Below are positions 28,257 to 62,655 of a stretch of 64,000 nucleotides of DNA, piece by piece. The position numbers were made by a program, and so were the translations under genes. This stretch comes from an uncultured Omnitrophica bacterium (GTDB lineage Bacteria > Omnitrophota > Gorgyraeia > JACQQV01). The notes beneath the pieces are model-generated. The model did no database searches. It saw only the letters and a list, made by a program, of their open reading frames with translations, and was not told where the DNA came from. The stretch is from the NCBI GenBank assembly GCA_947085655.1, contig CAMTXH010000014.1, forward strand, positions 9,825-73,824, written 5' to 3'. Positions within the stretch are counted from its first letter, which is position 1, and each line of letters opens with the position of its first letter.

Positions 28257-31200
28257 GTGAAAAATTCAGAAGAAAAAAGTCCAGAAATCAAGGGACGATT
28301 TCCATCTTGGTTTAGACCTCTTGCCTTCATTGTGGTCGAAACCTTTTTATGGACGACTCTCTCTTTTGATATTGCACTCGCCTTTGAACATCACGCCGCC
28401 GTTCATCTCCGCCCGAAGGCCTCCACACTGAAAGACGGCGGAGTGAAGGGACTCCGGGAAGCGCTCCGCGGAGAGGAACTTTTGGACTTGCCTGCCGAAC
28501 CCTCGGTCGCTGAGGACGGTGCCCGAAAAGGAAAGCCGTTCCGGGGAAAATATCCGACCCTCCACTTCCTGCACCGACCCAGCGAAACCGGCGGTCTTGA
28601 ACTGTCCGGTTTCGAAACGGACATCATGAAGATGGCCATTGCACCGAGCGCCGGCTCCAATGAAGGCCTGTCATTGAGCAATGAAGAGGCCGCCGCCTTC
28701 TTCCGCTTTGCGAGAGCGGTCGGTTTTGAAGACCTCATGATGATTCAAAATATGAATGACCGGCTTAACCGGGTACCGGAAGGAGACCGGAGGCGGCTTC
28801 TTCAGGGTGCTGTTCCAAGTCTCAAGAAAAAAGTCGTTCCTGTTCTTCCCTACGTTCTCAATCCCTTCGATGAGGGACTCGCCGAAATTTTATTGAGCGG
28901 AACAGAAGAGTTGAATTATTCCCTCCAGAGCCGCTTGAGCGGCGCGTTTGCCAAGGCAAGCGAAGTCAAGGGAACACCGGTAGAAAAATTAGCCCATCTT
29001 AGAAATGAGCTTTTGGAAGAAGGGGACCCCTCCAAAGCAAGGCTGCTGCGCATCCTCGAATTGATCGCAGAGCTCCAGACACCGGAGGCCAAACGGAAGG
29101 CCATCGTGGCCTTCACCGCACGGTATCTTTTCTCCGTGGAGAATAGCTTGCAGCTTGTGAAAATTTTTGGGCTTGCGGAAAGGGGATCGGAGACCGCTTC
29201 GGACGGCGCCAGAAAAACCATTGAGGGGGGCTATCCTTCGTTTGAGTACATGCATCAGCACTTCAGCCCGGCCGAACTTGCCCTTGTCCGCTTTATGATG
29301 CATCCGGATGCGGCGTTTGACCTGCAGGGTCGACTGAGCGTTCCGGAAATCCTCTTCTTTTTCAAAGCACTCCATGCGGTCGGTTTTGAGAATCTCCTTC
29401 TGATTCAAAACGTGGAGAAGGAACTTGAACAAACGGCTTTGCAGAAGAAAGAAATCCAAGAAGCGATTCATGGACTTCAGGCAAAAATTCCCCCTTTGCT
29501 TGAAAAAGTCACCTTTTCAGGCAAAGCGACAATCGGTTTAAGCAGTATCTTGGCGACCAGAACCGAAACGCTGGACGATGGCGTGAAACATCGCCTCCAA
29601 AAGGTCCTCGGGATGATTCAGAGGGCCAACGACCGATTTGCGGTTCAGACCGTGGACGATCTTCGCGAAGGTAAGATGCGCCTTCCGGATTCCAAGCCGA
29701 ATCAGCGGCTTATCGCGATTCTCCGTTTAATTGCCGACCTCCCGACCGTTCCTGAAAAAGAGAAAGCGGCCGTCGCTTTTGCCAAGCGCTTCCAATTGGA
29801 TGACCAAGATCTTTTTCACCTCCAAAGGGTTATGGGCGTCTCGCGAGTGATGTCCGGCCGGCTTCCGAACGAAGAGCAACTCAGAAAGGGGCTTAACCGT
29901 TACATCCGCCTTTTGATTCTTTCTGTTTTGAGAAAGGGATCCCCTGCGAAAGTGCTGGCGAAACCGACACTTCGCGATTCCCAATTCAGCGACGAGGAGA
30001 TCTCCCAATTTCTGGTGGAGGCCTATCAGCACCCTGACCGGCTTGTTGAAACGGCACGTCGTCAGTTTGAGGAAGCCCGGGCAGGACTTGTGCAAAGGAT
30101 TAGTCCAGAGGATCTGCGGGGATATGAACATGCGCTGCTTCAGATGGGTCCGGAGATTCGCGGCTTTTTGGAGCAGTATGCCTTGGTCTCTCCGGAAGGA
30201 ACAGAGGGAAGAGCCGCTGTTGCATCCCGTGACCGCCCGCCTGTTTCTCCTCTAGAACCGGAATCTCAAACTGCTGAAAGCAGCGGGCCGCTCAACGAGC
30301 TGTTGTCGGTCATCCGCGATCTTTTTGTCCAGGAGATCGGTTATCCGCTCCCGAATGACGCACTTGAACTTTTCCGAAGACCGCTGCAGAAAGGGCAAAT
30401 CACCCCGGATCAGATCATCTTTCAAATTACGGAATTGAGCGACCGGCTGACCGACAAAGAAAAAAGAGCCCATCAGGGAGACCGGATTTATTGGGTTCGG
30501 TTTGCAAAAGAGGCCATTGCCATCGAACCGATTACCCTGATCCAGCATGGAAAAACCCCCTCTCTCAAAGGGGTGCCCTATCAAAAAGAGCTTTATGAAT
30601 TGATGAATCGGGGTGCCATCACCAACACCCAGGCCTACTGGACCAAGGCGCTCATCCGGCATGCCGGCTTTGATCCGAAAAAGCTGGGCGCCGTCCTCCC
30701 GGCCGAAAATGGGAGCAGGCGGTTTGTGGACTTTGGAGCGCTTATCTCGGTTTTGGAGGCAGCGGGTAGCGGCAAATACACGGATGAGACAAAGGCGAAC
30801 ATTGTGTACGATTTCTTCCGGCATATTGCGACCCGGGAATCCAGAAAGGAACACTTTGAGGATCCGCGCACCCCCCTTCATTTATTCGGCGCACTCTATC
30901 CTTTTGTGGAATCCAACGTCCACGCATTTATTTACGAGGTGACGGAGGATATCACAAAAGGGGAAAAGCGTTTTCTCTATGACCCCGAAGGAAAACTCCT
31001 TCCTCCTGAAAAGACGGATGAGGTCGTTCAAAAAGTCTCCCGTTTGCTTGCCGGCAAAGGAAGAAAACTGAAGCGGGTGGATCAGTATCTGCTCGGGCGT
31101 GTCGTGAAAACTGTCCTCACAATGGACTACGAAAAGGGCCCCTCTGAGAGAACCCGCGACGGCGGCACCCGGCTGGCGAGTCGGGCGAGAGGACGCCTCA

Positions 31201-34200
31201 GGAGAGCATTTCATAACTTCCTCCTTTTGACGCAGTTGGTATATTCGGTGACAGTGAGCGTCAATCCTCCATCTGCTGCCGCGGCCCTTCCGGCAAGAGT
31301 TGCTGTACACCAAACGGTCTCTGTGCAACTTCCAGAACCCGAGTTTTCAGAACCGAGGGTTGAGACAAAGGCGGTTGATGAGTCAAATAAACCGATTCTC
31401 TCCAGAGGAAGCCGTGGAGAATCGGTTGCCGATTTGCAGAGGATGCTCGAGAAGACGGTTCATTTCGACGAACTTGGACAACTCCTTGCAGGGACAGGTG
31501 TGGATATCCCGAATCTGATCGCAGGATGGAAAATCGACGGTCTTTACGGCTGGCGGACCGAGGCGATGGTTTATGCCTTCCAGACGAAATACGGACTGAC
31601 GCAGGATGGGGATGTTGGTCCAGCGACTTGGCCGAAACTCGAAAGTGCTTCAGAGACAGTCGGAACGCCCATCCATGCAAGGGCGAGTCTGAATGAAAAT
31701 CTTCTCCCGCAGGAGCCGCATGATGTCACCGAAGGGCCGCTCCTTGCGTCACTGACACCTGATGTCATGTCCGATGTCGCGATGACAGCCGCCTTTCAAC
31801 CGGCAGCTCCGTCCCCTGTTCCCACATCCGCTCGGCCCGGCACCCACGCCGTCGTTGCCCCTGTTACGAAAACAGCAGTCTCACCCGCCGGCACCCCTCC
31901 GACGCCCCCTTCTCCCGCCGATACGCTTTCGGTCACGGCTGCCGCGACCGCTGATACTTTGCAGGTTTCGGGCGTTCCGCTTCTGACTTATGATTACGTT
32001 TCGGGCGATTTGTCCAAGTACCCGATGTATCTTACGGAAGACAGAGACGGACGGAAAGGACGATTCGGCGGATTCACGGAAGAGGAGAGCCGGCAGGTCA
32101 GACGGGCCTTGCGGGGAGAAGACCCGGCCTTTCCCGGAAAATACAGAGGAACCGGAGCCATTGTCTGGAGGAGTCTAGGACAGACCCTCTGGCGGAATGC
32201 AGAAGGCGCCCGGGAGATGATTGAAGAGGCCGAAAACTTTGTGAACGAGGCGGTTTCTAAAACCCCTTCCACGGATGTCTCAAAGTGGAAGGCCTCTTTG
32301 TTCGCGCCTTTCCCTGTCGCAGGTGTTCAGGATGCGGTTTTCCTCATGGATCCGCTTGGGATTCCGGCAGCCAGAATCCCGGAGTATGTGGCGGGGCTTT
32401 CAAAGGCGGGGGTCAATACCCTCTTTGTCAACACAGGCGGTTTGATGATGCTGGATGAGGCCAAGCGGCCGGAGGCGCGGGCCAAATACAATTTCCTCCT
32501 TCTTGAAGCAAGGGCGAGGGGAATCCGGACCGGGAATTGGGTCTCTGACGTGGTTCTCATGGGCGATCCGTTTCTCCCGATGGCGCTCGACGATGTTGAA
32601 CTGATCCGGAAATATTTCAACCTTTTGGCGGACGAAGTCCTTCCGTTCGATTTCCATCTGGTTGACCTTCAGCCGATGGATGATCTTCAGTGGGCGAATT
32701 ACGTCTCCACGGTCCGCTTCATTCAGACCGCCCTTGCGGTAAACGGCGGCGGGGACCTTTTCGTTTCAGTCGATCCTCAGGAAGTTTCTCACGCCGAATA
32801 CTGGAACCTTCCGGACGGCGTCGGATACATGGTCAAGGCCTACGCGACGACAGAGGCGGGAATCCTCCATAACGTCTATCAGGCCAAACTCGGTTTTGCG
32901 GCATCCCTCTTTGACGGAGTGGAGGTGTCGGATGGCGTTCGGTCTCTTTTAGAGCAGGCGAGGTCCGTCAGCAAAGAGTTGGAGCGGCTCGCTGCCGTCA
33001 GAAACCACGAGGCAAGCCGCGGCCCGGCGGAAGCGGCTTTCCAGAAGGGACTTGAACTTCTGAAAAAAATCCGGGAGGCCTTCGAACCTGCCCTCGGCAC
33101 CGCCCGGACCGCCGAACGGCCTTATACGTTTGTGGTCGGAACCTCTCCGCGTCTTGAAGACGGCGACCGGAGTTTCTTTAGACAGGAGGACCGGATTGCC
33201 GCCGTGACCGGGGAAACAGCCGCATTTTTGGAGGGAACGGACGGAGAGACCTTTGAAGGGCGAAGCATCCATTTCAATTCCTTCCAGGACCAACTGCACG
33301 TTTTGAAAGGGGGTAAGACGAGTTGGGCGAAGGGTGTCCGGCTTCAGGTGGTGGACCCGGCCGTTCGTTGGACGGTCCAAGCGATTGAAGATGCGGTGAA
33401 TTTTATCCGGCCGGGCGTGAGACCGAAGCGGACCGAAGAGGTGAGCCGGCCTCTTCTCACCCAAACGGGCGATTTTCTGATATTGAAGGGAAAAGGACTT
33501 TCCGGCGGTATTTTCGGGGCGAGTTTTGAGGTGCCCCTTGCGGATAATCTAGGAATTCTTTACGGCACCATGACGGGACTCCGTGGCATTGCCTTTACCC
33601 ATGTGGCAGATATCCAGAAGGAGACGTTCAGTCTGCGGGTGGTGGATGCGGACGGAAACGTTGTCCCTTTGAAAGATGCGGACGGAAATGAAAGACCGTC
33701 CCTCAACGCGGAGGAACTCCGGGCATTGACCCAAGCGGGAAGGGCTCTTCTTCTCCCAAGAGACCGAGGCAAATTGTATGCCGAGGCGACCTTCACGGTT
33801 GCCAAACGACTGGATGACCGTCCCAAAGATTTAGGAAGGATCTATAGCGGCAACATCGTCATTCCGTCCAATCTTCCGACGCAGTTTGGATGGGAGGAGA
33901 CATTTTCAGAAGAAGTGATCATCCCGGCGGGTGTTGCAGAAAGGGAGATCACTGTTCGCTCCCCGATCGCAGAAGGGCAGGTCAGTCAGATGCGGATGTT
34001 TGCAGTGAGTGAGGTCCGGCCCCATCTGGAATTCATCTCGCGTGAAGCAATCAGCGGCCGTGAAATTCCGCGCTTTATGTTCGGGGAAGAGCGGTTCCAA
34101 ATCAGCGGGGAGGAAGTTGTCCGGGAGGGCCATGAGGTCGTCTTTCCCCCGCTTTTTTACGGTGTCGCGGATACCACCGCCTATTTTCCGTTTGAATTTC

Positions 34201-37200
34201 ATAACCGCGGGACGGTTCCGGTTTCCCGGTATCTTTATCACCTTGTCCTCACCAATCAGGATGCGGGGGTGACCCTTCCGCCGAATGGTGAAACACGGGA
34301 AGTGGTGTTGAATCAAGAACGCTTTCGCGCCTGGATTGAGACGGATGAGGAAAGCGGAAGACAACGGGTGATCCTTGAACCGGTGGACGGCTCTTTCAAC
34401 GGGGAAGTATCGATTGGGGGAGAGGTTTTCTCACCTCCCGTTTTTGTCTCGCGTCATATCAAGCTGAAAGAGGTCGATTTTCTTGCGCGACTTGAGGGAA
34501 ATCGGATTATCCTTGAGCATGCCCGGTTGGGAGAGGGACGTCTTGTGGCAGATCCCGCCCCCATTCCCAAAGAAATCCTCGGTGTTCCGACCGATGGAAA
34601 AACCGTTTCTGTGGAAATCGACGGCAGGCGTTTCGCCGGCCGGATGGAAGGAAACCGGCTCACGCTCGTTCATGAGGGAGGATTGATTACCGAGCCGGTG
34701 CTTGTTGACAATGTCGAACTGCAACCCTCCCATGTCGTTGTTGAAAGACTCGAGGTGGGAGTGAACAGCCCCGACACAAAAACCGGCGTTGATTATTCGC
34801 TTCGGGGTTATGTTGAAGGGGACCGGATCATCCTTGAACCGACGCACGACTCCGGACGCCTCAGAACGCCTTTCATGATTTACGATGAGCGGATGCTGAG
34901 AGGATCGCTTAGAGCCGAGGCGGAGAGCGACCTTGAGACCTACCTTGACCTCCGGCATCTGCCGCCGGGCGGATACAAAGTGAGCGGCATCGTCTACTCG
35001 GTCCATCTTTCAGGCGAGGAGATCCAACGGATCCGGCTGGCGGAGGGCGCTGCGCCGGAGGCGGACGAAGTTTTCGGAATTCATGGCAGTTTCCGGGTCG
35101 GAAAGCCGTCCCTTTCAACCGGTGCGCCCGGCGGCCATGGTTTTCCGAGGGCCCACTCTCCTGCAGCGGCTGTTGTCGAAACAAGCATTCGGAATGACGG
35201 GGACGCCCCGGTCACAGTCTATCCGGTCGGCGTCTCACAGAATAAGCGGACCGGCCGGGTGATTACAACGGATGAGGATCGGAGCGACCCGCATGAGGCC
35301 TACTTTGTCACTTCAACTGGCGAGCGGCTTGAAGCGGTGACGCTTGCAGCGGGCGAAGAAATGAGGGTCCGGGTGAAACTTTTGCTTCCGGAGGATCCGC
35401 TGGATAAAGAAAAGCGTGATTTTACCGCCATTCTGGTGAGTCTTCGCAAACTTGATTTTGAACGGCCCCTTTCTGATGTGAGGGGCGAGGTCCTTGCACT
35501 TTTTGACCAGGCGGAATCGGTCGGGGAAGAAGCACTTCAGAGCCGCCGGCAGGATGAGAGACGTCATCTTGAGACCCGTTCGGAACTTGAAAGGAATAGA
35601 GAGAACACGAAAGATCTGGATGAGGCGCTCAAAGGGCTCCGGGAGGGGACCCAAAAACTTGAAGCGGCCTTGAATGGGCTGGATGAGGCGAGACAGGACA
35701 TCTCCGAAACAGATGACCCTGAAATGATTTCCCGGATTGCCTCCGGTTCCATCGGTGCCGTCTCAAGGGGACTTCGAGAGGCCTCCGACGCCGTTTACGG
35801 GGTAAGGGTCCTTTTTGTGGACACTGGCAAAACCTCTCCGAAAGAAAAAACCGAAGCAGACGGCGCTTACCTGGGCGACCGGGGGATTCTTGCGCGGACC
35901 GAGCCCCTTCTTTACGAGGTTCAAAGCGAGTCGCTCCTTAGATGGAAATTCGAGGGGCTTGCCTCACAGATGGATGACCTCCGGAGGGCCGAAGCAGGCA
36001 TCCTCCAACTGGAGGCGGATCGGGAGCGGCAGAGAGAAGGTCTTGAAGAGGAGAGGGCGTATCTGGGACGGTCCCTCCGGGCAGGCCCGGCCGCCGTTTC
36101 GGCACAGGCCGGCAATCTCCTTTTAGATGCTTTGTCCGGAAATACGCTCATGGCGGATCTGGAGAATGCCATCAGCACCGTCATGAACGACTCCCTTGCT
36201 GTGAGAGTGGCGGAATTAAACGGGGATGACCTGACACCGAAAAAGCGCGGATTCTTCGGGAAGGTTGGGTATGTCTTGGGCAGACCGTTTGCCGCGCCAG
36301 TCCGTGCTATCGGTTCACTCTTTTCGGAGGGGGAAAAGCGGGTTCCGCCGGATCAGATGCTTCACGCACTCTTCCCTGATTCAGCGTCCGTGGAAGCATT
36401 CCGCGAGGCGACGTTCAATGCCACCCGGACCCGTTTGGAAGAGCAGGGGAAAGGTTCTCTGCTTCAATTGATGGATTTCATCGCCCTTCGGGATGAACTT
36501 TCCGAGTTAAACGCAGAGCTTGAGGCAAACTATAAAGATGTGGCAGAAAAAGAGGCCTTGATTGCGGCGAATGAAGAGGTCGACCGGATTCTGGAGCGGC
36601 ACGGCGGAGTGGCCGGAGTCTCCGAAAAAATCTGGCGGTTGGTTACAATGGTTCTTACGCTGCAAGGCAAAGAAGCGCCGGTTGTGACGGTTACCGATCT
36701 TTCGAGTCTTCGGGATGCCGTCGTCCAAGCGAGAGAACTTTTACCCGAGACCCTTTTCGCGCAACTCATTCAATCGATGGATCGTGAAATCTCGGATAGC
36801 CAAAGAAGGGAGGAAGCGATTCAAAGAACCCTTGCTTCCATCGGGCGGCTTGAAAATGAAAAACTTCCGGAGGCAAGGACGCATCGCGACCGGTTGGCCG
36901 GAGATCTTGCCGAGTTGAAAAAGCGGCTGGGCGAGACCCTTCCTTTGAATGCGGATGAATTGCGGGCGCGGTACCACTCGGTCCTTGCAGAACTTGAGGT
37001 GGCGATTGCGGAAGAGAAAGAGGCGGTCCGTCGGTTGGAGGCAGAACTCGCCGGGCTCAGAGAGCGGCGGGAAGCACTGACAAGGCAGATTTCGGTTGAC
37101 CTTGAGCCCCGCGAACTGCTGACACAACTTGAGCAGGAACTTGAGGCGCTTCGGGATCAAAGCATACCCGAGATCATCCGGCTTTCGGAGGAGGGGGAAC

Positions 37201-40200
37201 AGGCCCTGAAGAAAAAAGAATATGAAGAAGCAAAACGCTCCTTTGACCAGGTCCTTGCCCTTGAACCGCTTCATCCCAGAAGCGCGCAATCCGAAGAAGT
37301 GAAGGAAGCGATTGAACAGGCGAGGAAGGGATGGCAGAAAGCGGATGAAAAACTGAAAGAAGAGGGCCTTCCGGTCGGAAAAGTCGAGGCGACAAAGATC
37401 ACCCTTGCGCAGACAGACCGATTTTTGGCGGTCGCCATTTCATCCATGGAGATGCTCCGTGCAGAGCGGGAGAAGAAGAAAGACGAGAAGCGGGCTGAAG
37501 CGTTCCAGGGATATCTGGACAAACTCTTTGCCCTCCGGCAAAAACTCCACGGAATGAAGGAAGGAGACGACCTTTCCTCCCTTTTGGTGGAGGCAGAGGA
37601 GGTGTTGGATGAGGCGTATGAGTCGGTAAGCGGCTTTTCCCTCCGAGTCACCGGCGTGAATCTGGCCCTCTCCTTTGTCCGGGACAAACTCAAACTCGGC
37701 GTGATCGGATTGATTCCGGTTTTCAACGTGACGATTCCGGATGGCCGCGCACCGATGCAAGGCCCGCTTAGGGAGTTGACCCTCGGTGCGGATGCGGTCC
37801 GGATGACGACCGAAAGCCAACCCTACGCGCCTTCCTTTAAAGGGGAAGGAGAGCGGTTGATTGACCGGCTCTTCGCCGGACACACCCCAAGCCGCGAAGC
37901 GGACCGGGAGGCATTCGACCTTGAGCAGAAGATTCGCGAGACGGAACGTGCGCTTGGGGAGGAAAGGAACCAGCTGAAGGCGGATGAATCCCTGCTTGGG
38001 GTGTTGACGGAGAAGCCGATTCAGAAATCGCATGCCAAAGCGCCGAAGGTGGTGACCGCAGAAGAGAAGGTCACCCAGAATCTCATTGCCTCCAGAGAAG
38101 CGAGGGATAGAGCCCGTGAGGCGCTTGACGTGGTGCAGCGCGATAAACAATTCGCCGAAGATGCCGCGCTCGTCCATCAAAAAGAGCTTGAACTCCGGGA
38201 AGCACAAATTGCGTTTGACTCGGCAGTCGCCGATTCCCTTGCGGAAGAACTCGATGCATCGGCACAGATCCTTTACCGGCATCTTGTCGGACGGTTTGAG
38301 GCGTCCGAGGCGATGGTCCGCGCCCAAAAAGGATATGAGGCAACAGGGAAGTGGCATCTCCATACCCCGTTCCATCTTCTTAAAAATCCGAAACAGCTTT
38401 TTTCATTAGAGACATTTGCCGGCGTAGGGGCCGCCTTCTTCCTCGGTCGCGAAGAGATTCCGGGCGGAATGGGCAAAAAAGCGATGACCGCCGCCGGATT
38501 CCCCTATCCGGAGCATCCGCTCCTTTCGTTCACAACGGGCCTTGTGACCGTTTCAAGCCCGGACCAGGAACTGACGCTGGGTGCAGGGGCGATCTCGATA
38601 CCTGACTACCTGAAGCAGCTGGATGAATATGAAAGAGGACTCCGGGATGAAAGACCGACTTTCCCGGTCGGTGTCGGAATCAATTTTAAACTCAGTGAAG
38701 AGGATCAAAGACTCCTTGCGAAAAAATACCTCACCTCAAAAGAGGCGGCTTACATCATCGCCCGTGTGATGGCGGAGGAATATGCGGATGAGTTGATACA
38801 GGGCGTGCAGGATCTTTCCCGAAGGACGAGCGACTTGGAGAAGGGGAAAGCAGACCTTGCCCGGAGAAAAGAGGAAAAGCGGCTCCTTGGGCGCTTTATC
38901 CGCCGGCTTGAGGCCGATTCCACAAGGGCCGCTTCTGAACTTGAAAGAGCCAATCTGGAGGCGTTCCGGAGCGCTGCCGCGCTTGACAGTCTGAAGGTCT
39001 TGATGGCGCGCCAAAGGGAAGCGGAAGAGGGGACCGGAAATTACCGGTACGTGAAACCGCCGGTTCCGGGAAGCGCTACACCGGCAGACACTACTGCGAA
39101 AGTTTCTCCTGATACAACGGGTACCGCAACCCCCGCCTCGAAATCTCGCGGAAACAAAGCGATCCCGACCGTCCTTGGCGGAACGGCGCTCCTCTGGCTT
39201 GCCTGGCTCCTCCGCAAAAGCAGGGAGTGGGGAGAATCTGCCAAAGACGGCGGCAATAAAGGGATCTTTGCGATTCGAAATGTGGCAAAAGAGTTCAGAA
39301 CGCAGAAAGTCGCTCCTTTCACTGCCAAGCGATACGCCACACGGCGCGTGAGCCAGTGGGAAGAGCCGAAGAAGGTTGTGAAAAACGTCGTTACGTTCGG
39401 CACCGGTATCTGGAACAGAATGGGCCTTGTGGATATCACCCCTGCCAATCCTGAAACGGAGACTCAAGCAAAAATCAGAACATGGGTCCGCCGGATCACC
39501 AAGGGGGCCCTCTTCGGCACTGCCACCCTTCTTGCCGCATCCGCCTTTCCCGGCGTCGGCCTTTTGGCAACGGCCATGCTGGGCGGTTTAGCCCTACTCC
39601 CTGGCTCTATTAAGCCGCTTGCCACCGTGGCGCTCGTGGTGGGAAACATGGCGCTTGGAGGCCTCCCCTTCAGTTTTTGGCTTCTTTTCAAATCGGTGCT
39701 TGCGGTTCAATTTGTTCCGAGCGGTTTTGTCACCCTGCGGCATGCCGTTCAGAACTTCTACCAGCACTTTGCCGTCTCCCACACGTCGCTCAGGGAATCG
39801 GGAGAGCACATTGGACGAGCGAGGTTCGGGCGAGAAACGTACGTCACTCTCCGGACACTTCTCATTGGCGCAGGTCTTGCTGGCTTTTCTCTTCTTGGCA
39901 TCGTTTCGAGTCCCTGGTGGTTTTTAGGGATTCCGGCGAATCATCTTCTCTTCGGGTTTGGTGAACTTCTCTTCTCCTTGAGACGGCCTCCTTTGACAGA
40001 AGCACAATTTGCGGCGATCGCTTCTCTCCGTGGGCGGAGTCTTCAGGATTCGGAGGACCGGTTTAACCGCAGGGAGTTACGCGAGTTAAGCGACGATTAC
40101 AATGATTTCAAAAGGGAAAAAGAAAGAGCGGAAAACAGGAAATTCAGAAGCGAAAAAGAGAAAGCGGAGCTCTTTAATGCCTTCCTTGAGTATGAGAGGG

Positions 40201-43200
40201 GACTCAAAGAAGAGACCCTTCGGATGCAGGCGGAGGCGGAGAGAGAAATCTCAGACCGGGCCATCGCCGCTCATCAGGGAATTTTTGAAACCGGATACCC
40301 TTACCAAGGACAACACTACGATCCGCTCACAGAAGAGGAGCAGATATTTCTTGCGGAACTTCTCATGAAATATCCTCATGTAGTGAAATTGCATCTCAAT
40401 GATGAGTTGGGATTGGTTGGGAAAGCAGAGGAAGGGAGAATTGAGGCCACGATTGCAGAGCTAGAGCGTGAAAGGCCGTGGCTAAACCCTGAAGAGCGGA
40501 CCAATTTCTTCAAGAGTCTTGACCCGGATGATTTGATTGCCATCATGCGGGTGCGTGAGGAAGTTCGGAGAGTCTCTCTTGGGAATCCTTCACTGACCCC
40601 ATGGGGAAGAGACGATGGCGTCAAACAGACATTGACTGCTCTCTTTGCTCATTACCGCCTCGATACCACCGCACAGCACGCGGATGTATCGCATTTTGAC
40701 TTTGGGGCCTATGTGAGAGGGGCCTCCCTCAGTCAGATTTACCTCTCTTTCCGGAAGGATAAAACACAAATCGCCTTAAACCCGGGTCTTTTTGTCTGGA
40801 CCGGATGGGGCTTGTGGATGGAAATATTCCATAAGACACGGACAGGGGAAATCCCATTCCGGAAAGGAATCCTGGCGCTACTTCTCACGCCATTGACCCA
40901 GGTCTTGAGTTATTACCCGAATGCGGCTGCTCTCCGGCCGCTCCGTGGCTATGAAAAAGATACGAACCAGCGGTTTAGTCTCCGGATGATTGCCGAAAGC
41001 GATCCGGAACTGGATATCTGGTCCTGGACCTTCGGTGTTTTTGCCCGCTGGATCTATGGCCACCTATTTACGATTGCCCCTGAAATAGTGGGAGGCGAAA
41101 TCTTTCTCCGTGACCTGATTGCGCCGCACCGGTTTGAGTATAAAAACGAAGGGGGATGGATAGATCCGGTAACCGGCATCCGGGTACCGATGTTCTATGC
41201 AAAATTTGCCCAGGAACTTGATCCTTCCAGACCCCCCGAAGACCAGCTCGCCGCGATGCTGGATGCGATGGGGAATCCGGAGACGACCAATACCCTTTTC
41301 CCCGGCGCCCGAGTGGATCGGATTCATGATTTGATTTACCTTGGACGACTCACCGAGGATAGCCGGAGTGCGATGGGGAAGGACGGCGAGACGGAGAGGA
41401 CCTCTCTCCACCGCGACCTTATCGTCTCGCGGCTCATCCGGGACGACGGCGTTCTTGTGATTCTCCCGAACGGCGACAGTTTCCTTTTCCGGGTCGCGAA
41501 TCCCGGCTATCTGAACCGGATTGCAAAAGGGGCTGCCCTCGGGATGCTTCTGATTGTGTATCTCTCCGGACGGGTCCGGGTTCTTCCAAGACTTTCGATT
41601 GTGAACGGGCGCCCGGTCCTCGAAAATGAGACGACCAGCGGTTATGAAACCTATGCGCACGAGGTTAGGGAAGCCGATGAGATATCCAGAGAGGTCAGCG
41701 AAGCGCGTGCCCAGCGGGCCCAACAGTTTATTCATCGGCAGATGGGTCAGACTTATACGATTGATCCGGAAGGAGACCGAAAAGAGATCCGACTCGGCGC
41801 AAGAGTCGGTTACGACCCGGACAGTTACGGCATGGCTCACTTCTTCCGACGGGGCAAGGCCAAAATCTTTGGTCTGATTCCCCTTTCCCTTTACGGCGGT
41901 GCAGGGGACAACAATCTGGAACAGGTCGTCAAGGCATTCTATGATCCGGAAGAGGTGATCCGATTTGTGCAGGAGCAAATCAAGGAAGATCAGAGAAAAG
42001 CGGGGACATTTGCTTCGCTGAGGGACTCATTTTCAAATGTGACCCTCAAAATTGAAAAGGAAACCCCGGACATCCTGCATCTTTCTTCGGCAACGCTTGA
42101 TCCGGCAGCGCAAGAAGCGTACGCCCTTTATCTTGGGCAACTTCTCCGGATGCGCGGCATTGATGTTCCTGAAAGAATTTTAAGGGCCCATGCGCCAGCC
42201 CTAACGCATCCCCTTGAGGCACTTCCGACCTTCATTCAGCATGTGGTGCGGGCGGTTTTGGACATTGATGAAGCGGCCATTCAAGGCGAGGATCACCGGC
42301 TCCTTTACGAAGGCCTTTTCCTTGCCACCAGCAAACTCTATCTTAAGGCGATTGCGCGCTCCATCGCGGATCCTTATGTCACGGTCGAAGGAACAAAGCG
42401 GCGCGATCTTGTGAAGGCGGTGGATTCCCTTGCCGCAGGAATCGGAACATCCGCTGCTCCCACACGGCTCACCGGCTTCAAAGAAAGCACCGCTTTGGAA
42501 TTTTTCCTCCTTTCCGATGAGCGGGGTGAACGGAGTGCGGTTGGCTCAGGCGTTGCCAGAGACCTTTATTATCTATCGGGCAAAGCAGGCGTCATGCGGC
42601 TCGGCGATCAGACATTCGGAGAATGGCGGGGGGCTCTCCACCTGATGGAGAAAATCCGGGATCGCTTCTTCGGACAGGATCGGTCCTGGACATGGCTGGG
42701 TCGCCGGAGTGCAACCCACGGCGCTTCAGAACTCGGCTCCGAACTTTTCCGGATTTCGAGGAATGCCGAGCCGGGGCTTCAGTCGCATCTCGAAGCATTT
42801 CTCCGTGCCGCAAGCGACCAGGGCCTTTCCATCCAGCGGCTTCATGTGACGCGGGGGAGAGATCTCGTCGTTGTCGCAGACTATGCGGGGGCACAGAATT
42901 ACAGTCGGTTGAAGGAAAAAGACGGAGCCCTTTTCTTCGATGGGAAACCGATGAAGCGGAGAAACGAACGGGTTGAACGGATTCTGGGTGAGCACGGACT
43001 CAATATTCGCCATGCCTTCGAACGGGTGATTGTTTTCAGCCCTGCGGAATATGACGTGTTGCGAAACCACGATCTCTATCGGACAAAAGAATTGAATGTG
43101 GATGCTCAAGATGGGGCGAGAAAAGCAAGACCGGCCACCCCGACATGGCTCTCACGACTCAGAAACGGCTTCGTCACCTATAGCCGGAGTTATCTTTTGG

Positions 43201-46200
43201 TAGGAACCCTCGGCACCATTGCCTATGGTCTTGCCGCCCTCTTTGGTGTTCCGGCCCTTTCCGCTCCGGCGCTTGCCATCGGTGCGGTTTCAGGAACAGG
43301 ACTCATTGCGCTGGGATGGCTTATGTCGAAAATACGGTCTGATTCTTTGATGGCACCGGCGCTCAAGAACTTTTTCGGAATTACAATCCTCTCCGGTACA
43401 GCGGCATATGGGCTCATGGCCGGAATAGGCGGGCTGGCCGCGAAACTCTTATCATCCCTTGAAGATCCCCTTATCTCGACAGCACTCCTTGCTCTGGGCC
43501 CGCTTTCCGCATTGGGCCTCGTCGGAACCAGTTGGCTCTGGTCTCGCCATCAGGAGGATGAATCCAGTTTTGCCAAGAAACTCCACAGTGTCTCCAAAAC
43601 GCTCGGCATCGCCGCAGCAGGGTATACCGCCCTTTATTTGGCGACTGCGCCCGTCGGAGGAATCGCCCTCTACTGGTTGGCGCTGCTCGGAGCCGGCACT
43701 CTTGCGCTTCCGGGCTTTGTTATCCAAGTCGTTCAGTTTGCCAAGCGGTGGTTTGGGGACAGCGACGAATATCCGGCCATCAGCGCCTCTGAAAAGAAAG
43801 CAGCACTGGATGAGGAAATTCAAAGGGCGATCTCCGGGAATTCGCCGGTTCGGATTTACGAAGGAGATATCAGTGAAAAAGGCCGGGCCAGCAGCCGGCT
43901 GGATCCGCTCTTTGTGGTGAACGAAGCCCACCGGACAAAGCAAAACGGATTTGTAGATGGAGACAGGAACAGATTTGAGGTTGTGAGAGAGACGGCCGAG
44001 TGGCTTAATGGAGTCATTGAAGATGAAAACACCATTACGGTCCGGCGGGCCTCTGCTCCTGAGATACATTTGGTTGAAACTCCGCAACGCGATTACGCTG
44101 AATCGGTCGCGGCAAACTCCGATGTCGAGCAGGCAAGAGAAGATTTAGACAAGACCATTCGGGAAGTTGGAAAGAAAGCTCTGCGGGGAGAGGACGCAGA
44201 AAACTTAAGGGCGCTTGGGCTTCAAAAAGAAGTCGAGCAAGGATCGGTCCACGTCTTTAGCGGCTTGATGAGAGGCATTTCTGCAATCGGAAGCGCATTG
44301 AGTTGGATGACCAGAAAAGCGGCCTTTGTCGGCGCGTTCACAGCGGCCTGGCTTATCCCGGGCCTGGGATTCTTTGATGCGGGAACCGGTCTGGGAGCTC
44401 TTCTTGTCAAGGCAACCTTTATTTTGGCCACCGGTGTCTTTGGACTCATTGTCGGCTCCTTGGCACGAACCGCGGTCAAAATTGCTTTTACTTTTACTGC
44501 CACAAAATTCATCGGACTCATCGGCTGGATTGAAAAACCGCACAAGCGGTTTGGGAACCGGCCGATCCCTCTCCTGAGCCGGTTTGTGAATATCGAAAAT
44601 GTGGTCTTAAGCCGCGGTTTTGTGAAATTGGTGAGGGCGTACGGCCATGAGCCGAAAGCATTCCTGGCAAACTACTATGGCGAGGCGGAGTATCCGCTTG
44701 TCTTCGGGATTCCGTTCCTTCCGGGTCACTTCAAATTTGTGGTTCCCCTTCTCACAAGGAAGTTCCATGTGCATCGCGTCCCGAGCGAGTTGTCGCTCAC
44801 GGCGATGTTGACGAAACTCCATGAGCCGCCGATGACCCTTCCGGTTTCCGGCTATAACTTCCTCGAGGGAATCATCCAGCGTTTTAAGGTGGTCCTCATC
44901 TACACCGAGGATACCCTCTCCGGCATAGGGGTCACGAAGCCGGTCTGGCAGCCGGTGATGCCTGCCAAAGGGGAACTCCGGATGGAAGGGCTCATGGCGA
45001 TCGACACGTTTAGACGGTTCAACCAGTCACCGCAGCGGGCCCTCCTTTATGCGAAAGGGAAAGGACTTTATGAGGCGATTGAGGCGCTGGCTCGCGGCGA
45101 TGATCCGTATGTCGGGGACGCGTTCGCCCCATTTGCAGAATTCCTCCGGAACATGTTCTTTATGAAAGCATTTGACGATAATCAGGTGGATGTGGACGCT
45201 TCTGCCAAGAGCGCCGGGTTCTTCAGTTACATTTTCGGGCGCTTTACAAACCGGGACCTTGTCGGGAAGCATATCACCGAATTCGGTCTCGGCGATGCTC
45301 AGGCGTTCCGGGAGTTTGACCGGTATCATGCTTTGGATGAACAATTAGGTGGTAGGTTTGTGGATAACAGGTACCTCAAAGGTAGATTTTATCAGGTGAT
45401 GGATGCGGTTCAGGAGAGGATCCGTGAGGCGGTCCGTGAGCGCTTCGGAGTGGAACCGGAAGCATATTATCCGGTCGATCCGGAAATCGTGGCGGCTGCA
45501 GCTATGCTCTGGAATAAGTGGGAACGCGAAAATCTTCAAGACAATATTCACCGCCAGCTGGGACTCGGCCATCTAGCGGAGGAAGTCAATTCTATTCGCA
45601 TGAACCCAGAGATAACTATGGCGGTGGAGAACCTCTGGAGAGAGTGGATGAGGAATAGACGAACTATTCATAACATGGAAGAAGCACTTCAAATCCAAGT
45701 CGGTCGCATCCGTGGCACGGATAGAACTTCTGTATCGATTGCCCCAGAAATAGTAGGAGTGATTGAAAATCTCTGGGAACAGTGGATAAGAACTGAACAA
45801 TACATTACCCGGGAAGCGCTTGAGTCAGTCCTTGTGCTCTGGCAAGAAAGGGAAGATACAGGATTTTCTATTAACGAGGCCTTGAATCGCTTGCAGGATA
45901 CGATTGTCAATATTACCAACGAAAGATTAGGACTTGAGGATAGAAATTCTGTAATGAATAATCCCGAAGCGATCAAAGTCATCAATGCAACGCAACGACT
46001 TTGGAGAGTGTGGGATGAAACTGGGCGTGGACCGACATTTTCTGTCAACGAGGTTCTTGGAAGATTTGAAGAACTGATTGAGGTGACAGATGCGTCCGAT
46101 GGCGGGAGAAGGTATATCGAAGAATCAAAGCCCCTCCTTACCGAACAAGGAATCACTTATGAGAGAGAGATCGCTGTGACTTTGGCGCCCCAGGGGATGG

Positions 46201-49500: not shown

Positions 49501-50735
49501 CATGGGTTCATCCGAGCGATCTTTTGGAACTCGGCGGAAGCGGGATGCTCGTAACCGACCCGGACTTCTGGACGCTTTGGGCTCTTTCCACGCAGGCCCG
49601 TCTGAATCTTGGCTCCTCTTTCCAACTTGCTGTTGAACGGGGTGACGTCGGATTCGATGTTTCATTTTATGATTACCTCAGAGAAGCGACAGGCGGGGGG
49701 ACTTATCGGGAAGGGATCCTTGCGGCCTTGAGAGAAAAGGGTCTCGGAAATTCGTTCCATACTCAGGGAGACTACACTCTCGGCCTTCTTTCCTATCTAT
49801 GGGATAAAGGGGAAGGAAGTGCCGAATTTGGGACTGATTTCGGGGGGGCGTATCATCTGCGGCTGCAGGGGATTCTTTTGGGTGTGCCGTTTAATGCTCA
49901 AACGGTTCTTGCAAGACATGCCTCACCCCGAGTTGACGTTGGTATTTCGCGGGAAATCACCTCCCGGGGAAAACTTTTCGCATCGCTCGGAATAAATCCT
50001 AACGAGATAGATCCTAATCAGAAGGTAAAGTTTAGTCTCGGCCTTCGGATCGGGACTTCAAGACCGAGACTTCCGACAAAGCGCGACGCCTTCAATGCGT
50101 CTCAGGTCGGCGCTTCCTTTGAAAGGGACCTGAAACGGCTGGAACATCTCGGAGAGAATCCGGAAGAACTGATTCAGGGCGCGATCCCTTCGGAACTCCG
50201 TTTGAGAAGGAGCGAGGGAGAAACCGAATATACCGGACCGAGCGTTCGGGATCTGTTTGACCGTGTGAAACAAAAAATCGACGTGTCAGAATCAATCAGG
50301 CAGCAACTGGATCAAATTCAGACCACCGCAAAGTCTCTGACGCCTTCGAAGACCGATTCGTCGCTCTATATCCATCCTGTCAGCCGTCTCAATCCTGAAA
50401 CCCGCGAACTGGTCGGAAAGATTCAAGACAAAATAGACCCAAGCGCTTTACGGCGTCTTGTTCCTCCGGAAGAAAGATCTGATCGATTGACCGCCGAACG
50501 GCTCGTCAAACTCCATGCACTTTTAGCCCATTACTTCAATGGCGGGGAAGGGATGAGAGATATTCATCTCCCTTCCGGATTCCAGTTAAATCAACTCGGC
50601 GCCATCGATGATGTTTCTCTTGAAACCATCCATGCAACGACCTATGAAGGCCTTATCCTCAAGGTTTTCCCAGAGATGCAACAGTTGGAATTGGAGCAGC
50701 AGAAGCTTCAGTCGATGCGGGAAAAGCAGGTCTAA
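46566..50735 (+). CDS. Large membrane-anchored or secreted protein (1,389 aa) with a β-rich N-terminal half, a coiled-coil middle and the shared C-terminal module
   Basis: ATG-ATG at 46566 lies 6 nt after the upstream stop; AAGGAAC overlaps that stop. N-terminus RKRQFGIRWVGLMVAQAFVFGTLLTDTAWAF...HLRQRPLASQDGG fits the leader shared by neighbouring genes. Coiled coil around 48640-49260. The last about 105 aa are homologous to the end of the 6,100-aa protein. Confidence 0.75.
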   Translation: MMNRNRKRQFGIRWVGLMVAQAFVFGTLLTDTAWAFRRNPYDHLRQRPLASQDGGMKELKAKLTGGAPTENLREVTSSPPVLNSEGARDSFRRGVLRLSLLGLLAGSGAAIPAITHAAFPLSPPAQVEVQAPDSLKAVRLARTKQAYLNAYLNYQEAFSRQNRSLRAVQEDAAWSRVDEEFFRTLEAIRQFVKFEVTAMDKVIALHTFIPGSVGNVTFDEFARLIRQDVNAPGEFYMPPDLLNQVSFDITATTELDFQDGVQIEGILTVTTARGPDQRVYQYELPVTATLKDPGKIAFHFNTLQLRNEGKITRRLIDTKGTETERDDVVLGSGQVSRIEEGVIANVSFNALWNGIGLLPRGEPVSLEIPFVLAEGVLRPGSFQVLTNNMEDVGIAPSSSELNRFPFEYQIRYADSPTLAPLSKAHGLYELTFTLTTDRRRTFVVSGQMGSLLGRGETGTLRFRLSDRPIVETFLGQRVGEVSEVPTGFYIVSLSILDLDTKSPLQPNDRLAGPVVRPNLLFVGSRVQSGSNAVATDGEWFVDGSAIYTEGRGPGTKVWAEYEIDLGPNPLEDLGLVVYARNRTPGPTGTFDLEVFVDGEPLDLGRGSPHVIRVPIHPDGLVRTSGTPAFDLPSGVHRFRLQWVNDTGPTTTLQIERVLLTIPRQAGGALSAPVAGVSIPEAGVLAEEPTRAQVREERLKQELERAKKESERRRSILEPRLLLLPEAMRHLPMELIHLLRNDQDLREAEKTLLARADEVRQAAQGVEGAEAEVATMEWLETQRKKQTAPYATARITGLNLEGTEDAVAHLKLGDWIRLGPVGLSPFVEYRFRAPYLSGKSEKDQLRDEAAEVQKALDDIEARIKAERDPEVARRLNQERDSLKNQQLALEENIAELEHLKRVLHLEENLRYGLQGFYLLSDRHLAGSFRLAGYGSPVWLEEVLPGYGHLPGLKERGTKVSESQRLRFGLPRLYEVSNTLAWVHPSDLLELGGSGMLVTDPDFWTLWALSTQARLNLGSSFQLAVERGDVGFDVSFYDYLREATGGGTYREGILAALREKGLGNSFHTQGDYTLGLLSYLWDKGEGSAEFGTDFGGAYHLRLQGILLGVPFNAQTVLARHASPRVDVGISREITSRGKLFASLGINPNEIDPNQKVKFSLGLRIGTSRPRLPTKRDAFNASQVGASFERDLKRLEHLGENPEELIQGAIPSELRLRRSEGETEYTGPSVRDLFDRVKQKIDVSESIRQQLDQIQTTAKSLTPSKTDSSLYIHPVSRLNPETRELVGKIQDKIDPSALRRLVPPEERSDRLTAERLVKLHALLAHYFNGGEGMRDIHLPSGFQLNQLGAIDDVSLETIHATTYEGLILKVFPEMQQLELEQQKLQSMREKQV

Positions 50736-60294: not shown

Positions 60295-62655
60295 ATGACA
60301 CCGGAGAAAAAGTTCAGAAGTATTCGGAAAGAATTAATTCTCCTCGGCATTTTTCTGGCCTTTGCCGTTTTGGTTGTGGTGGTTTTTCTCTTACAGCCGC
60401 CCTTTTTGGCGCACTTTTTGCCGAAGCGGCTCGTGACAAAAGGAATGACTATCCCCGAATCGGCGGCGGTTTCACCGGCGGTCCCCGCTCCAATTCCTAC
60501 CGAGGCACCGGTTCCCCCTAAAGCAGTTCCTCCTCGCGTACAAGTCGAGGTGGTTCCGGAAAGCCTCCTCGTTGACGATTTTGATCTGGGATCGGCCCGC
60601 GGCGTTTTTAAAGAGCGTTTCAATGCCCTCGGGACCTATCAGGGAACCTTTTCAAAGCGTCCTTCCTATACGGTCCTTTCCAAGACAACAACCATCCGCC
60701 GCGGGGAGAAGGGGCGGAGTCTCATCATTGATTATTTTACGGGCGGGGGCTGGTGCGGTTATTACACCCTTTTGGCCGGAATCGACATTTCCGCCTTCAA
60801 TACTCTCTCCTTCTGGATCAAGGGAGAACAAGGCGGGGAGGTATTCGATATCGGCCTTGCGGATCAGAGAATGCAGGAACTCGAAATCGATGCCGTCTAT
60901 CTTGGGTCTGTGAACCATTTCCTTCCGCAAGGCGTCAACACTGAGTGGCAGGAGGTGAAAGTTCCGCTCGGCAAGGTTGCGGCAGACATTGACCTGACCC
61001 AGATGGGATCTTTGGTCTTTTTCTTCCGCCATGAGGGGAAGGGGCGTGTCTATGTGGAGGATATCCTGTTTAAGAACGATCCGGAAATCGAGCGGATGCT
61101 TGCGGAGAACGCCCCGCGGGCGGAAACCGACCCCCTTCATCCGAGGAGCGTTTGGGTCTGGAAGACTGACCCGGCCCAAAATCTGAAGGCGCGGAAGGAG
61201 CTCTTGGAACTCTGCGAGCGGACCGGCATCAAGATTCTCTACCTTTTTGTCGGCGATTTCTCCGAAGAGGATGACCTTGAATATGCAAAAGGGCTTGAGG
61301 GGTTCCTTCGGGAGGCGCACCAAAGAGGTCTCAAAGTCGAGGCGTTGACCGGGAACCCGATCTGGCAGATGGAGGAACAACATGAGACCGCGCTGAACTG
61401 GGTCCGTTCGTTCCTTGAGTTTAACAAAAAGCGTCCTCCGGAGGCCCGGATGGACGGCATCTCCCTTGATGTGGAACCGTATCTGGCGCAGGAGTGGAAC
61501 GAGGACCGGGAGGGGGTCAAGGCGGGCTTCCTTTCCTTATTAAGGAAGGTCCGGGCCCTGATTGAGGAGTACCCGGAGCAGGAGTTCCGGTTCGGCGTGG
61601 TTGCCCCTGTTTTCTACGCTGCGGAAGGCCCTGAATTTGAGCGGGAGATTTTCAGGAACGTGGATGTGGTGGCGTTGATGGACTACTACGACACGGCGCG
61701 GGAGATTCTGGGAAATGCCAAGTATCATCTGGATCTTGCCGAGGAAATGGGGAAAAAACTCGCCATCGGCGTCGAGACACAGGATCTGGTTGCCATCAAA
61801 CAGGGAGGGCGGCGGAACACCTTCTTCGAGGAGGGATGGGAAGGGATGGAAGAGGTTTTGAAGGAGGTGAAAAAGGAGGTGGCCTCCACCAGCGCCTTTG
61901 AAGGGTTCGCCATCCATTATGACATCAGCTACAAAAACCTTCAGAAAGGGCGGAATGTCCCGACCAAAGAAAGAAAAATACTCTATACCCTCACCGCCGC
62001 GAAGGCGCCGGTCCCCCCTGTCATTGACGGCGATCTTTCAGATTGGAAGCGGGAGGAGTACCTCTGGGTGGTAACGGAGAAGGACAATGTGGTGTACGGA
62101 CAGGGGGCCTGGCGGGGGGCAGGGGATCTTTCTTTCCAGACAATGCTTCAATGGGATGAGCAAAACCTCTACTTTGCCGCCCGAATCACAGACGACCAGC
62201 ACGTGCAGGAGAAAAAAGGAAAAGACCTCTGGGAAGGGGATCATGTGGAATTTTGGCTCGATATGGACCTTGAGGGGGATTATCTTGAAGCGGTGAATTC
62301 AGACGATGACTTCCAATTCGGCTTCAGCCCGGGTAATTTCAAATCCCTCCCCCCCGAAATCTACATCTGGACCCCTCCGCTTGATCCGGAAAACCTGAAA
62401 CTGGCGGAAGTGGCCTGTCGCAAGACAGAAGAGGGCTATGTCGTAGAGGTCCGGCTTCCTGTATCATTCCTTTTTACCACCTCCAAGCGGAACCAGACCG
62501 AAAGGATCTTCAAACTCGGCGACCGCTACGGCGTCAGCATCGATATGAGCGATACGGATGACGCCAGAGCCCCCCAGAAATCGCTCCTTTCCACTTCAAC
62601 CAACCGGATCTGGGGAGACCCGACCACCTTCGGCATTCTGGAGTTGAAAGAATGA
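60295..62655 (+). CDS. Membrane-anchored protein (786 aa) with a Pro-rich stalk, a paralogous β-sandwich (CBM-like) domain, a GH-like α/β region and a C-terminal CBM9/DOMON-like domain (tentative)
   Basis: ATG at 60295. Upstream are TATAAT (60267-60272, overlapping the preceding stop) and GGTGAG. TM helix LILLGIFLAFAVLVVVVFLL. Pro/Ala/Val-rich linker. GGGWCGYYTLL...GGEVFDIGLAD...TEWQEVKVPL domain (60580-61080). α/β region VWVWKTDP...ILYLFVGDF...DGISLDVEPY (61140-61800). C-terminal LSDWKREEYLW...WDEQNLYFAARITDD...GDHVEFWLD (62030-62640). Confidence 0.7.
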   Translation: MTPEKKFRSIRKELILLGIFLAFAVLVVVVFLLQPPFLAHFLPKRLVTKGMTIPESAAVSPAVPAPIPTEAPVPPKAVPPRVQVEVVPESLLVDDFDLGSARGVFKERFNALGTYQGTFSKRPSYTVLSKTTTIRRGEKGRSLIIDYFTGGGWCGYYTLLAGIDISAFNTLSFWIKGEQGGEVFDIGLADQRMQELEIDAVYLGSVNHFLPQGVNTEWQEVKVPLGKVAADIDLTQMGSLVFFFRHEGKGRVYVEDILFKNDPEIERMLAENAPRAETDPLHPRSVWVWKTDPAQNLKARKELLELCERTGIKILYLFVGDFSEEDDLEYAKGLEGFLREAHQRGLKVEALTGNPIWQMEEQHETALNWVRSFLEFNKKRPPEARMDGISLDVEPYLAQEWNEDREGVKAGFLSLLRKVRALIEEYPEQEFRFGVVAPVFYAAEGPEFEREIFRNVDVVALMDYYDTAREILGNAKYHLDLAEEMGKKLAIGVETQDLVAIKQGGRRNTFFEEGWEGMEEVLKEVKKEVASTSAFEGFAIHYDISYKNLQKGRNVPTKERKILYTLTAAKAPVPPVIDGDLSDWKREEYLWVVTEKDNVVYGQGAWRGAGDLSFQTMLQWDEQNLYFAARITDDQHVQEKKGKDLWEGDHVEFWLDMDLEGDYLEAVNSDDDFQFGFSPGNFKSLPPEIYIWTPPLDPENLKLAEVACRKTEEGYVVEVRLPVSFLFTTSKRNQTERIFKLGDRYGVSIDMSDTDDARAPQKSLLSTSTNRIWGDPTTFGILELKE

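Follow-up and report, generated by a model that had tools for sequence, protein, structure and literature searches.

A predicted wall-attachment module with a degenerate TIM barrel in a giant protein of an uncultured Omnitrophica bacterium

Results

A giant open reading frame and its rare relatives

We analyzed 64,000 nucleotides from an uncultured Omnitrophica bacterium (contig CAMTXH010000014.1 of the GenBank assembly GCA_947085655.1, positions 9,825 to 73,824 of the forward strand), hereafter called the window. It contains a giant open reading frame (ORF), G6100 (28257..46559, + strand), which runs uninterrupted through 6,100 codons, so that residue n begins at 28257+3(n-1). Our subject is a module at residues ~1054-1690, in frame with this ORF and composed of a peptidoglycan-binding domain, a linker and a TIM barrel that has lost the two acidic residues conserved in its family. 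The same protein is on record identically from 3 contigs (NCBI and Logan assemblies), and hence is not an artefact of a single assembly; the locus was moreover recovered in assemblies of different runs and matches the NCBI metagenome-assembled genome GCA_964374045.1. When the entire protein is compared to Pfam, PG_binding_1 is the single significant domain. Hydropathy analysis returned five or more hydrophobic clusters (residues 21-43, 984-1002, ~3750-3892, 4978-5162 and 5354-5500), several of them predicted to span the membrane, in agreement with a preliminary description of the locus, made from the sequence without database searches, that considered the giant protein to be membrane-anchored. 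On the same strand G6100 is followed by g1389, g1655, g1449, g786 and g381, with gaps of 6, 212, 6, 23 and -4 bp, respectively.

To collect relatives of the module, we used the domain downstream of the linker as the query of an exhaustive phmmer search over 1.84 billion cluster representatives. Only four proteins were retrieved: G6100 itself, the 4,016-amino-acid orthologue P0002 (52% identity to G6100 over the domain), P0003 (MFH1857860.1; E = 2.6e-5), which is a 5,631-amino-acid giant from an Omnitrophota metagenome-assembled genome, and the 1,536-amino-acid fragment P0004 (E = 1e-4). Collinearity with G6100 extends over thousands of residues in both P0002 and P0003. The α/β domain occurs three times in P0003: one copy is of the G6100 type, and two are compact (~260 amino acids each, residues 431-712 and 1845-2105) and have kept the DIEP/DVEP and ET motifs intact. 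Since one of the compact copies separates the G6100-type copy from the peptidoglycan-binding domain, an active barrel may ancestrally have followed the peptidoglycan-binding domain. Scans of genome and metagenome contigs returned no further relatives.

A peptidoglycan-binding domain and a long spacer

The preliminary description had recognized a PG_binding_1-like domain at 31401-31644. PF01471 indeed matches at 31416..31637 (+ strand, residues 1054-1127), covering profile positions 2-56 of 57 with a score of 46.9 bits (cut-off 23) and E-values of 3.2e-12 for the G6100 fragment and 1.4e-9 within a 2,000-amino-acid piece of the protein. Solved peptidoglycan-binding domains match the same residues with E-values of about 1e-6 to 1e-4, namely 5tv7 (7e-7), 1lbu (1e-6), 4lpq, SleB 6tci and 5nm7, and the motif DG-x-G...T...V..FQ...GL..DG.VG..T of such domains can be read directly in the translation. 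Matches to NCBIfam on the module are confined to this stretch and come from models of wall hydrolases. We thus identify residues 1054-1127 by profile as a genuine PG_binding_1 domain, the only one in the window, which is predicted to bind peptidoglycan. It has an insertion of ~19 residues after the first helix (74 residues over 55 profile positions) that, in the alignment, is shared only with the related giants P0002 and P0003.

The domain is followed by a linker at 31662..31961 (+ strand, residues 1136-1235). Its composition (17% Pro, 14% Thr and 18% Ala, compared to 4.9%, 5.3% and 9.7% in the whole of G6100) is that of the P/T/A-rich linker already noticed at this place in the preliminary description.

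A TIM barrel with lineage-specific additions

Sequence searches with residues ~1235-1720 returned no significant match in Pfam, NCBIfam or PDB. The domain was delimited by structure prediction and profile comparisons. AlphaFold2 modeling of residues 1345-1700 with a 29-sequence alignment produced eight strand-helix units with a mean predicted local distance difference test (pLDDT) of 79.6 and a predicted template modeling score (pTM) of 0.83. In model numbering, strands β1-β6 span 15-19, 44-48, 80-85, 122-126, 157-161 and 178-183, and strands β7-β8 span 279-285 and 322-329. The model built from the single sequence is of low confidence (pLDDT 44.7), yet strands and helices already alternate in it. 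According to the models, residues ~1358-1690 are a (β/α)8 TIM barrel, with β1-β6 at 32328..32897 (residues 1358-1547; AlphaFold strands and hhalign) and β7-β8 at 33114..33326 (residues 1620-1690; AlphaFold and the family hidden Markov model (HMM)), both on the + strand. The α/β alternation reminiscent of glycoside-hydrolase-like TIM barrels that had been noticed at first is thus borne out by the fold, and non-enzymatic helical repeats downstream of the linker, the alternative named at the time, can be rejected. The extent needs correction: of the interval 31401-32900 proposed for the whole region the start agrees, whereas 32900 takes in only β1-β6 and the barrel ends at 33326.

Two elements are added to the barrel. 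The first is an N-terminal extension of 110 residues at 31962..32291 (+ strand, residues 1236-1345), recognizable by the motifs YDY...G...P and WK[AG][SN]LF, which is conserved and alignable in G6100, P0002, copy B of P0003 and P0004. The second is a helical hairpin of ~70 residues that the AlphaFold model places between β6 and β7, at 32898..33113 (+ strand, residues 1548-1619). Its two helices (215-235 and 240-269 in model numbering, residues ~1559-1613) form a block with pLDDT of ~88-96. Only G6100 and P0002 have the hairpin; P0003, P0004 and the family's stand-alone proteins described below lack it.

A Foldseek comparison of the model with PDB structures returned 180 matches with E <= 0.001. 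The 50 listed are TIM barrels without exception, and glycosidases from the glycoside hydrolase (GH) families GH35, GH66, GH10, GH20 and GH5 score best among them, with E-values between 4e-6 and 1e-4.

Profiles place the barrel in a small family with one solved structure

When used directly in a word-indexed homologue search, the barrel domain had no match. A profile of six copies led in the same search to one protein, the stand-alone P0005 of 327 amino acids. P0005 has ~30 homologues, mostly from Paenibacillus, four of which are fused to SLH wall anchors, and it matches the PDB entry 10yv ("Putative GH97 from Cellulomonas fimi") with an E-value of 4e-14, which becomes 3.9e-36 over the full length with the family profile. 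This unpublished entry is the single solved structure of the family. In the comparison by hhalign, from which the two compact copies of P0003 were excluded, the giant-type profile aligned with the profile of the intact family over 230 columns (98% probability, E = 3e-13). The relationship is also detected by a family HMM from whose alignment G6100 and P0002 were left out; it matches residues 1358-1424 and 1604-1690 of G6100 (E = 1.9e-10, single target). G6100 and the family have in common the scaffold motifs GDP, D-x-x-P, W, Y, T, F and G..IH. On this profile evidence the barrel of G6100 belongs to the 10yv-type family of small TIM barrels, for which neither Pfam nor NCBIfam has a model and for which our literature searches found no paper.

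The "GH97" in the name of 10yv is the wording of the PDB depositor only: none of the GH97 models (PF10566, PF14508 and PF14509) matches any of 29 family sequences at E <= 1, nor does G6100 match any of them. Three motifs of the family, FDGIHLDVEPY on β4, LMAYRD on β6 and ALGG-P-W on β3, resemble the DxxDxDxE, MxYD and SxGGW motifs of GH18. Kinship with GH18 is nevertheless not supported beyond this likeness of motifs; PF00704 matches none of the 29 members at E <= 1, and GH18 structures are not among the 50 Foldseek matches listed. Neither is 10yv among the Foldseek results for the barrel model.

Both conserved acids of the family are replaced in G6100

Intact members of the family, including 10yv and the product of g786, have the motif G-I-H-L-D-V-E-P just past β4, and the Asp, Glu and Pro of LDVEP are invariant across 18 intact members. 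Every intact member also has a V-E/D-T motif on β7, with Glu or Asp at the central position. The corresponding stretches of G6100 read F-H-L-V-D-L-Q-P and F-V-V-G-T-S. The position of the invariant Glu is occupied by Gln1472 (codon CAG, 32670..32672, + strand) and that of the Glu/Asp of β7 by Gly1628 (codon GGA, 33138..33140, + strand). Five independent alignments (three with MAFFT, one with HMMER and one with hhalign) agree on the placement of both positions. The occurrence of G6100 in 3 contigs and in assemblies of different runs rules out that the two substitutions are assembly errors.

Further residues conserved in the family have been lost, namely the Trp of β1 (Met1364 in G6100), the Trp of β3 (Leu1440), the Asp of the YxD motif on β6, and the Tyr and Trp of β8. 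Asp1470, Pro1473, Trp1479, Trp1516, Tyr1527, Thr1629, Phe1640, Gly1668 and His1672 are retained. The preliminary description had suggested that the region may cleave glycans and had pointed to catalytic Asp/Glu pairs conserved in homologues as the feature to look for. Such a pair does characterize the family; the G6100 copy lacks it, together with the conserved Trp, Tyr and Asp residues, which speaks against cleavage by this copy.

The acid positions vary among the related copies. The residues after β4 and on β7 are Gln and Gly in G6100, Asp and Glu in P0002, Glu and Glu in the G6100-type copy of P0003, and Glu and Ala in P0004. The sequence around them is well conserved: identity between G6100 and P0002 is 63% in β1-β6 and 58% in β7-β8 of the barrel and 69% in the peptidoglycan-binding domain, compared to 48% in the aligned region overall (residues 948-4444), 35% in the helical insert and 32% in the linker. 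The barrel and the peptidoglycan-binding domain are thus the best-conserved segments of G6100 in this comparison. A barrel that is conserved while its acid positions drift has the signature of a pseudo-enzyme, which would be kept for binding or as a scaffold.

The module is predicted to face away from the cytoplasm

A predicted membrane helix or signal anchor (31206..31274, + strand, residues ~984-1006; Kyte-Doolittle peak 1.31) precedes the module. Since eight Lys or Arg lie within the 21 residues ahead of it and only one within the 24 residues behind, the positive-inside rule argues for an N-in/C-out orientation, which would place the peptidoglycan-binding domain outside the cytoplasmic membrane. 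We infer that the residues after this helix are extracytoplasmic; the next transmembrane cluster after the module starts near residue 3750. A similar basic-plus-hydrophobic stretch can be seen by eye before the module of P0002, P0003 and P0004, and among these three the hydropathy scan flags the one of P0003 only (residues 178-211).

The same stretch lies next to a short recurrent motif. We observed [A/S/T]-x-D-G-G-x-[K/R] 11 times in the window, only in four consecutive genes (28257-60271): at residues 60, 968, 3664 and 5948 of G6100, residue 53 of g1389, residues 71, 597, 1292 and 1613 of g1655, and residues 592 and 1249 of g1449. Shuffled sequences contain it 0.40 +/- 0.62 times, and none of 500 shuffles had more than 3 occurrences. 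The sites flank Pfam domains in g1655 and g1449, and the motif occurs also in P0002-P0004. It may mark module boundaries or processing sites of multi-domain "polyproteins". Right after the site at residue 968, positions 31164-31292 (residues 970-1012) encode TRLASRARGRLRRAF-HNFLLLTQLVYSVTVSV-NPPSAAAALPA, which resembles a signal peptide or signal anchor in having an Arg-rich n-region with a twin-arginine-like pair ("RRAF"), a hydrophobic core and an Ala-rich end, and which lies 45 residues ahead of the peptidoglycan-binding domain.

An intact paralogue in the same gene chain

The family HMM built without any sequence of the window also detects a barrel in g786 (60295..62655, + strand) with an E-value of 3.4e-58. 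This barrel (61117..61956, + strand, residues 275-554) is intact, with the motifs GISLDVEPY and IGVETQD. Carbohydrate-binding modules (CBMs) flank it on both sides, a CBM30/CBM11-like one ahead of it and a CBM9 one behind (Pfam: CBM9_1 4.2e-18, CBM30 2.8e-7, CBM_11 0.0016). The protein starts with a hydrophobic stretch read by eye, LILLGIFLAFAVLVVVVFLL at residues ~14-33, that may be a membrane anchor. Two genes composed of CBM30-like modules were noted after g786, g381 (62652-63797) and another at 13522-14133 of L002; g381 has two copies of the module, which are 41% identical to the CBM30-like module of g786. Beyond g381 there are further CBM30-like genes, a glucosamine-6-phosphate-isomerase-type gene and a nucleotidyl-transferase gene.

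Among the stand-alone homologues, one is encoded between genes for a UDP-sugar dehydrogenase and a phosphoglucomutase, beside a GT2 synthase; the gene neighborhoods of the others are mostly uninformative. That the family acts on polysaccharides is best supported by this polysaccharide-synthase-like operon together with the fusions to CBMs and to SLH anchors.

Discussion

A probable non-catalytic wall-attachment module

Taken together, these data lead us to favor, by a modest degree of confidence, the interpretation of residues ~1054-1690 as a non-catalytic module for attachment to the cell wall. The membrane helix at ~984-1006 would lead the chain through the cytoplasmic membrane to its outer side; ~45 residues further on, the PG_binding_1 domain would attach to peptidoglycan, and the 100-residue Pro/Thr/Ala spacer would then reach the (β/α)8 barrel. 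The barrel would descend from small putative polysaccharide hydrolases of the 10yv type and, with both conserved carboxylates gone (Gln1472 and Gly1628), would act as a lectin-like pseudo-enzyme, the former active-site cleft now holding a glycan chain and leaving it uncut. We infer that glycan binding is retained by the barrel. The two domains would in this way tether the extracytoplasmic stretch of ~2,700 residues to the wall, and hydrolysis, if any, would be left to the intact CBM-flanked paralogue g786 of the same gene chain. Because the module starts so shortly after a helix predicted to be N-in/C-out, the wall that it binds is probably the cell's own periplasmic sacculus.

Several points weigh against this interpretation. 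The two carboxylates of the family are considered catalytic from their conservation and from their location at the C-terminal ends of β4 and β7 only, and the family has no member with a demonstrated activity or ligand; some homologues are annotated as "amidase", the Bacillales members being otherwise "hypothetical". Another acid (Asp1470, Asp1475 or Asp1476) could reach the cleft of G6100, and the orthologue P0002, which retains Asp and Glu at the two positions, might be active. As the Foldseek TM-scores of the barrel lie at only 0.35-0.5 and are similar for sugar epimerases and other TIM barrels that are not glycosidases, the fold alone does not prove a glycosidase. As for the topology, the helix at 984-1006 is only modestly hydrophobic (1.31), and the N-terminal helix at 21-43 leaves the arrangement of the whole protein ambiguous.

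It is conceivable, if rather unlikely, that the barrel no longer binds sugar at all and is instead a rigid structural or protein-protein unit whose hairpin docks, for instance, on the giant itself or on G7091, the giant ORF upstream. In favor of such a unit, many cleft residues are lost, and the two lineage-specific additions, the high-confidence 70-residue hairpin and the 110-residue extension, are conserved. Several aromatic and polar residues of the cleft (Asp1470, Trp1479, Trp1516, Tyr1527 and His1672) are kept, however, and fusion through a spacer to a peptidoglycan-binding domain is typical of carbohydrate-active proteins. In addition, the equivalent copy of P0003 retains both acids, which indicates that the ancestral role in the giants was probably directed to carbohydrates.

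The opposite possibility, that the barrel is still a glycan-cleaving enzyme, appears improbable. Cleavage would have to rely on other residues or on another chemistry, such as Asp1470 with substrate assistance from an N-acetyl group or a lytic or transglycosylating mechanism, and the enzyme would remodel or attack the wall together with the peptidoglycan-binding domain. The retained cleft residues listed above and the good conservation of the barrel in P0002 are compatible with this possibility, as are the glycosidase-like TIM fold and the order of domains, since wall hydrolases such as SleB, 1lbu and 5tv7 usually combine PG_binding_1 with a catalytic domain. Nevertheless, both family-wide acids are replaced, one of them by Gly, which is incapable of acting as nucleophile or base, and other conserved Trp, Tyr and Asp residues have gone with them. 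Residues of a working catalytic site are also not expected to vary between close orthologues amid conserved surroundings, and no hydrolase model of Pfam or NCBIfam matches the barrel.

An alternative to which we assign a low probability is that the dead barrel regulates or positions the intact g786, much as amidases are activated by the degenerate LytM factors EnvC and NlpD. By binding the substrate of g786, it would bring this enzyme to the location of the giant or activate it there. A degenerate and an intact copy of a rare family are indeed found 14 kb apart in one same-strand chain with short gaps, and the barrel is still under constraint. Conversely, there is no evidence of an interaction, the two barrels are only ~20% identical, and the giant P0003 itself holds intact copies, which shows that the family is able to act in cis without a partner; the contig of P0002 is too short to reveal whether a g786 homologue accompanies it. 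Very improbable, finally, is a polyprotein cut at the DGG sites, in which the fragment from residue 968 would open with the signal-peptide-like RLASRARGRLRRAF-hydrophobic-AAALPA and be exported as a wall-docking head (peptidoglycan-binding domain and dead barrel) that recruits or positions g786, although, if true, this would be a previously undescribed logic of secretion and assembly for giant-gene systems.

Comparison with known systems

The peptidoglycan-binding domain of G6100 carries the same signature as PG_binding_1 wall enzymes such as SleB (6tci and 4fet), the Streptomyces Zn D-Ala-D-Ala carboxypeptidase 1lbu, the L,D-transpeptidase-like 4lpq and 5tv7, and, as in many wall hydrolases, it is N-terminal to a domain of catalytic type. 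Unlike in these enzymes, it lies ~1,050 residues into a multi-pass membrane protein of 6,100 amino acids, has a 19-residue insertion and is joined to a partner without catalytic acids. With the 10yv-type family G6100 shares the eight-stranded barrel and a related profile; it differs in having Gln and Gly in place of Glu, in the loss of two Trp and of the Asp of β6, and in the addition of the 110-residue N-terminal extension and the 70-residue hairpin.

Retaining glycosidases of clan GH-A (the "4/7" superfamily that includes GH5, GH10 and GH35) have their acid/base and nucleophile at the ends of β4 and β7. The two acids of the 10yv-type family have the same arrangement at the ends of β4 and β7, and the Asn-Glu-Pro of the clan corresponds to Val-Glu-Pro in the family and to Leu-Gln-Pro in G6100. 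With Leu-Gln-Pro on β4 and Gly on β7, G6100 has neither the acid/base nor the nucleophile of the clan, and the barrel has no GH5, GH10 or GH35 match in Pfam. Catalytically dead proteins that keep the fold of a carbohydrate-active or wall enzyme include the GH18 chitinase-like lectins of the YKL-40 type and the degenerate LytM factors EnvC and NlpD. As in G6100, the fold has remained under selection after the loss of catalysis, presumably for binding or regulation; their folds and families differ from those of the G6100 barrel.

Binding and digestion of cell walls are the presumed functions of the giant proteins of Omnitrophota-like bacteria, most of whose sequence is unannotated. The module offers a concrete anchor point, in the form of a peptidoglycan-binding domain beside a barrel of an unnamed family of putative glycosidases. 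The predicted death of this barrel is also a warning that a hydrolase-like fold in such giants need not mean a hydrolase. It points to a possible division of labor between the giant, whose copy would only bind, and the intact CBM-flanked copy of the same operon. Some of this was known before: P0003 is labeled as a peptidoglycan-binding protein by NCBI, and the barrel family is known from the unpublished 10yv only. The degenerate copy embedded in a giant, with its extra elements and paired with an intact CBM-flanked paralogue, is new. The family itself, of which a structure has been solved and which has no Pfam, NCBIfam or CAZy-type model, merits characterization.

Two reports on Omnitrophota giants have proposed that these proteins bind and degrade walls (West-Roberts et al. 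2023, doi 10.1101/2023.11.21.568195; Nielsen and Lui 2026, doi 10.64898/2026.06.07.730766). G6100 shares with the giants described there the length of several thousand residues, the transmembrane clusters, the carbohydrate modules and the neighbors involved in sugar metabolism, and at 6,100 amino acids it is far below those of 30,000 amino acids and more. The terms PG_binding_1, PF01471 and TIM barrel were not found in the main texts of the two reports.

Other features of the gene chain

Some features of the chain concern regions outside the module. G6100 (28311-28532) and the next gene g1389 (46599-46847) have in common an N-terminal hydrophobic leader, FPSWFRPLAFIVVETFLWTTLSFDIALAF, with Glu and Asp inside, which is present also in P0002 and P0004. 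The two proteins further share a C-terminal domain of 190 residues (45960-46535 in G6100 and 50157-50693 in g1389; 41% identity, E = 6e-29) that recurs in P0003 with 45% identity.

Upstream of G6100 lies the 7,091-amino-acid ORF G7091 (6750-28025), which has several transmembrane clusters and whose start overlaps the preceding gene by 17 bp. No Pfam model matches it at E <= 0.01, nor was any similarity to G6100 detected. Downstream, g1655 and g1449 (50948-60271) encode unusually long fusion proteins, about half of the length of each being unannotated. The 1,655 amino acids of g1655 include a left-handed β-helix/DUF4954 module joined to an amino-acid-kinase module, and the 1,449 amino acids of g1449 have an acyl-CoA dehydrogenase core in the middle of the protein.

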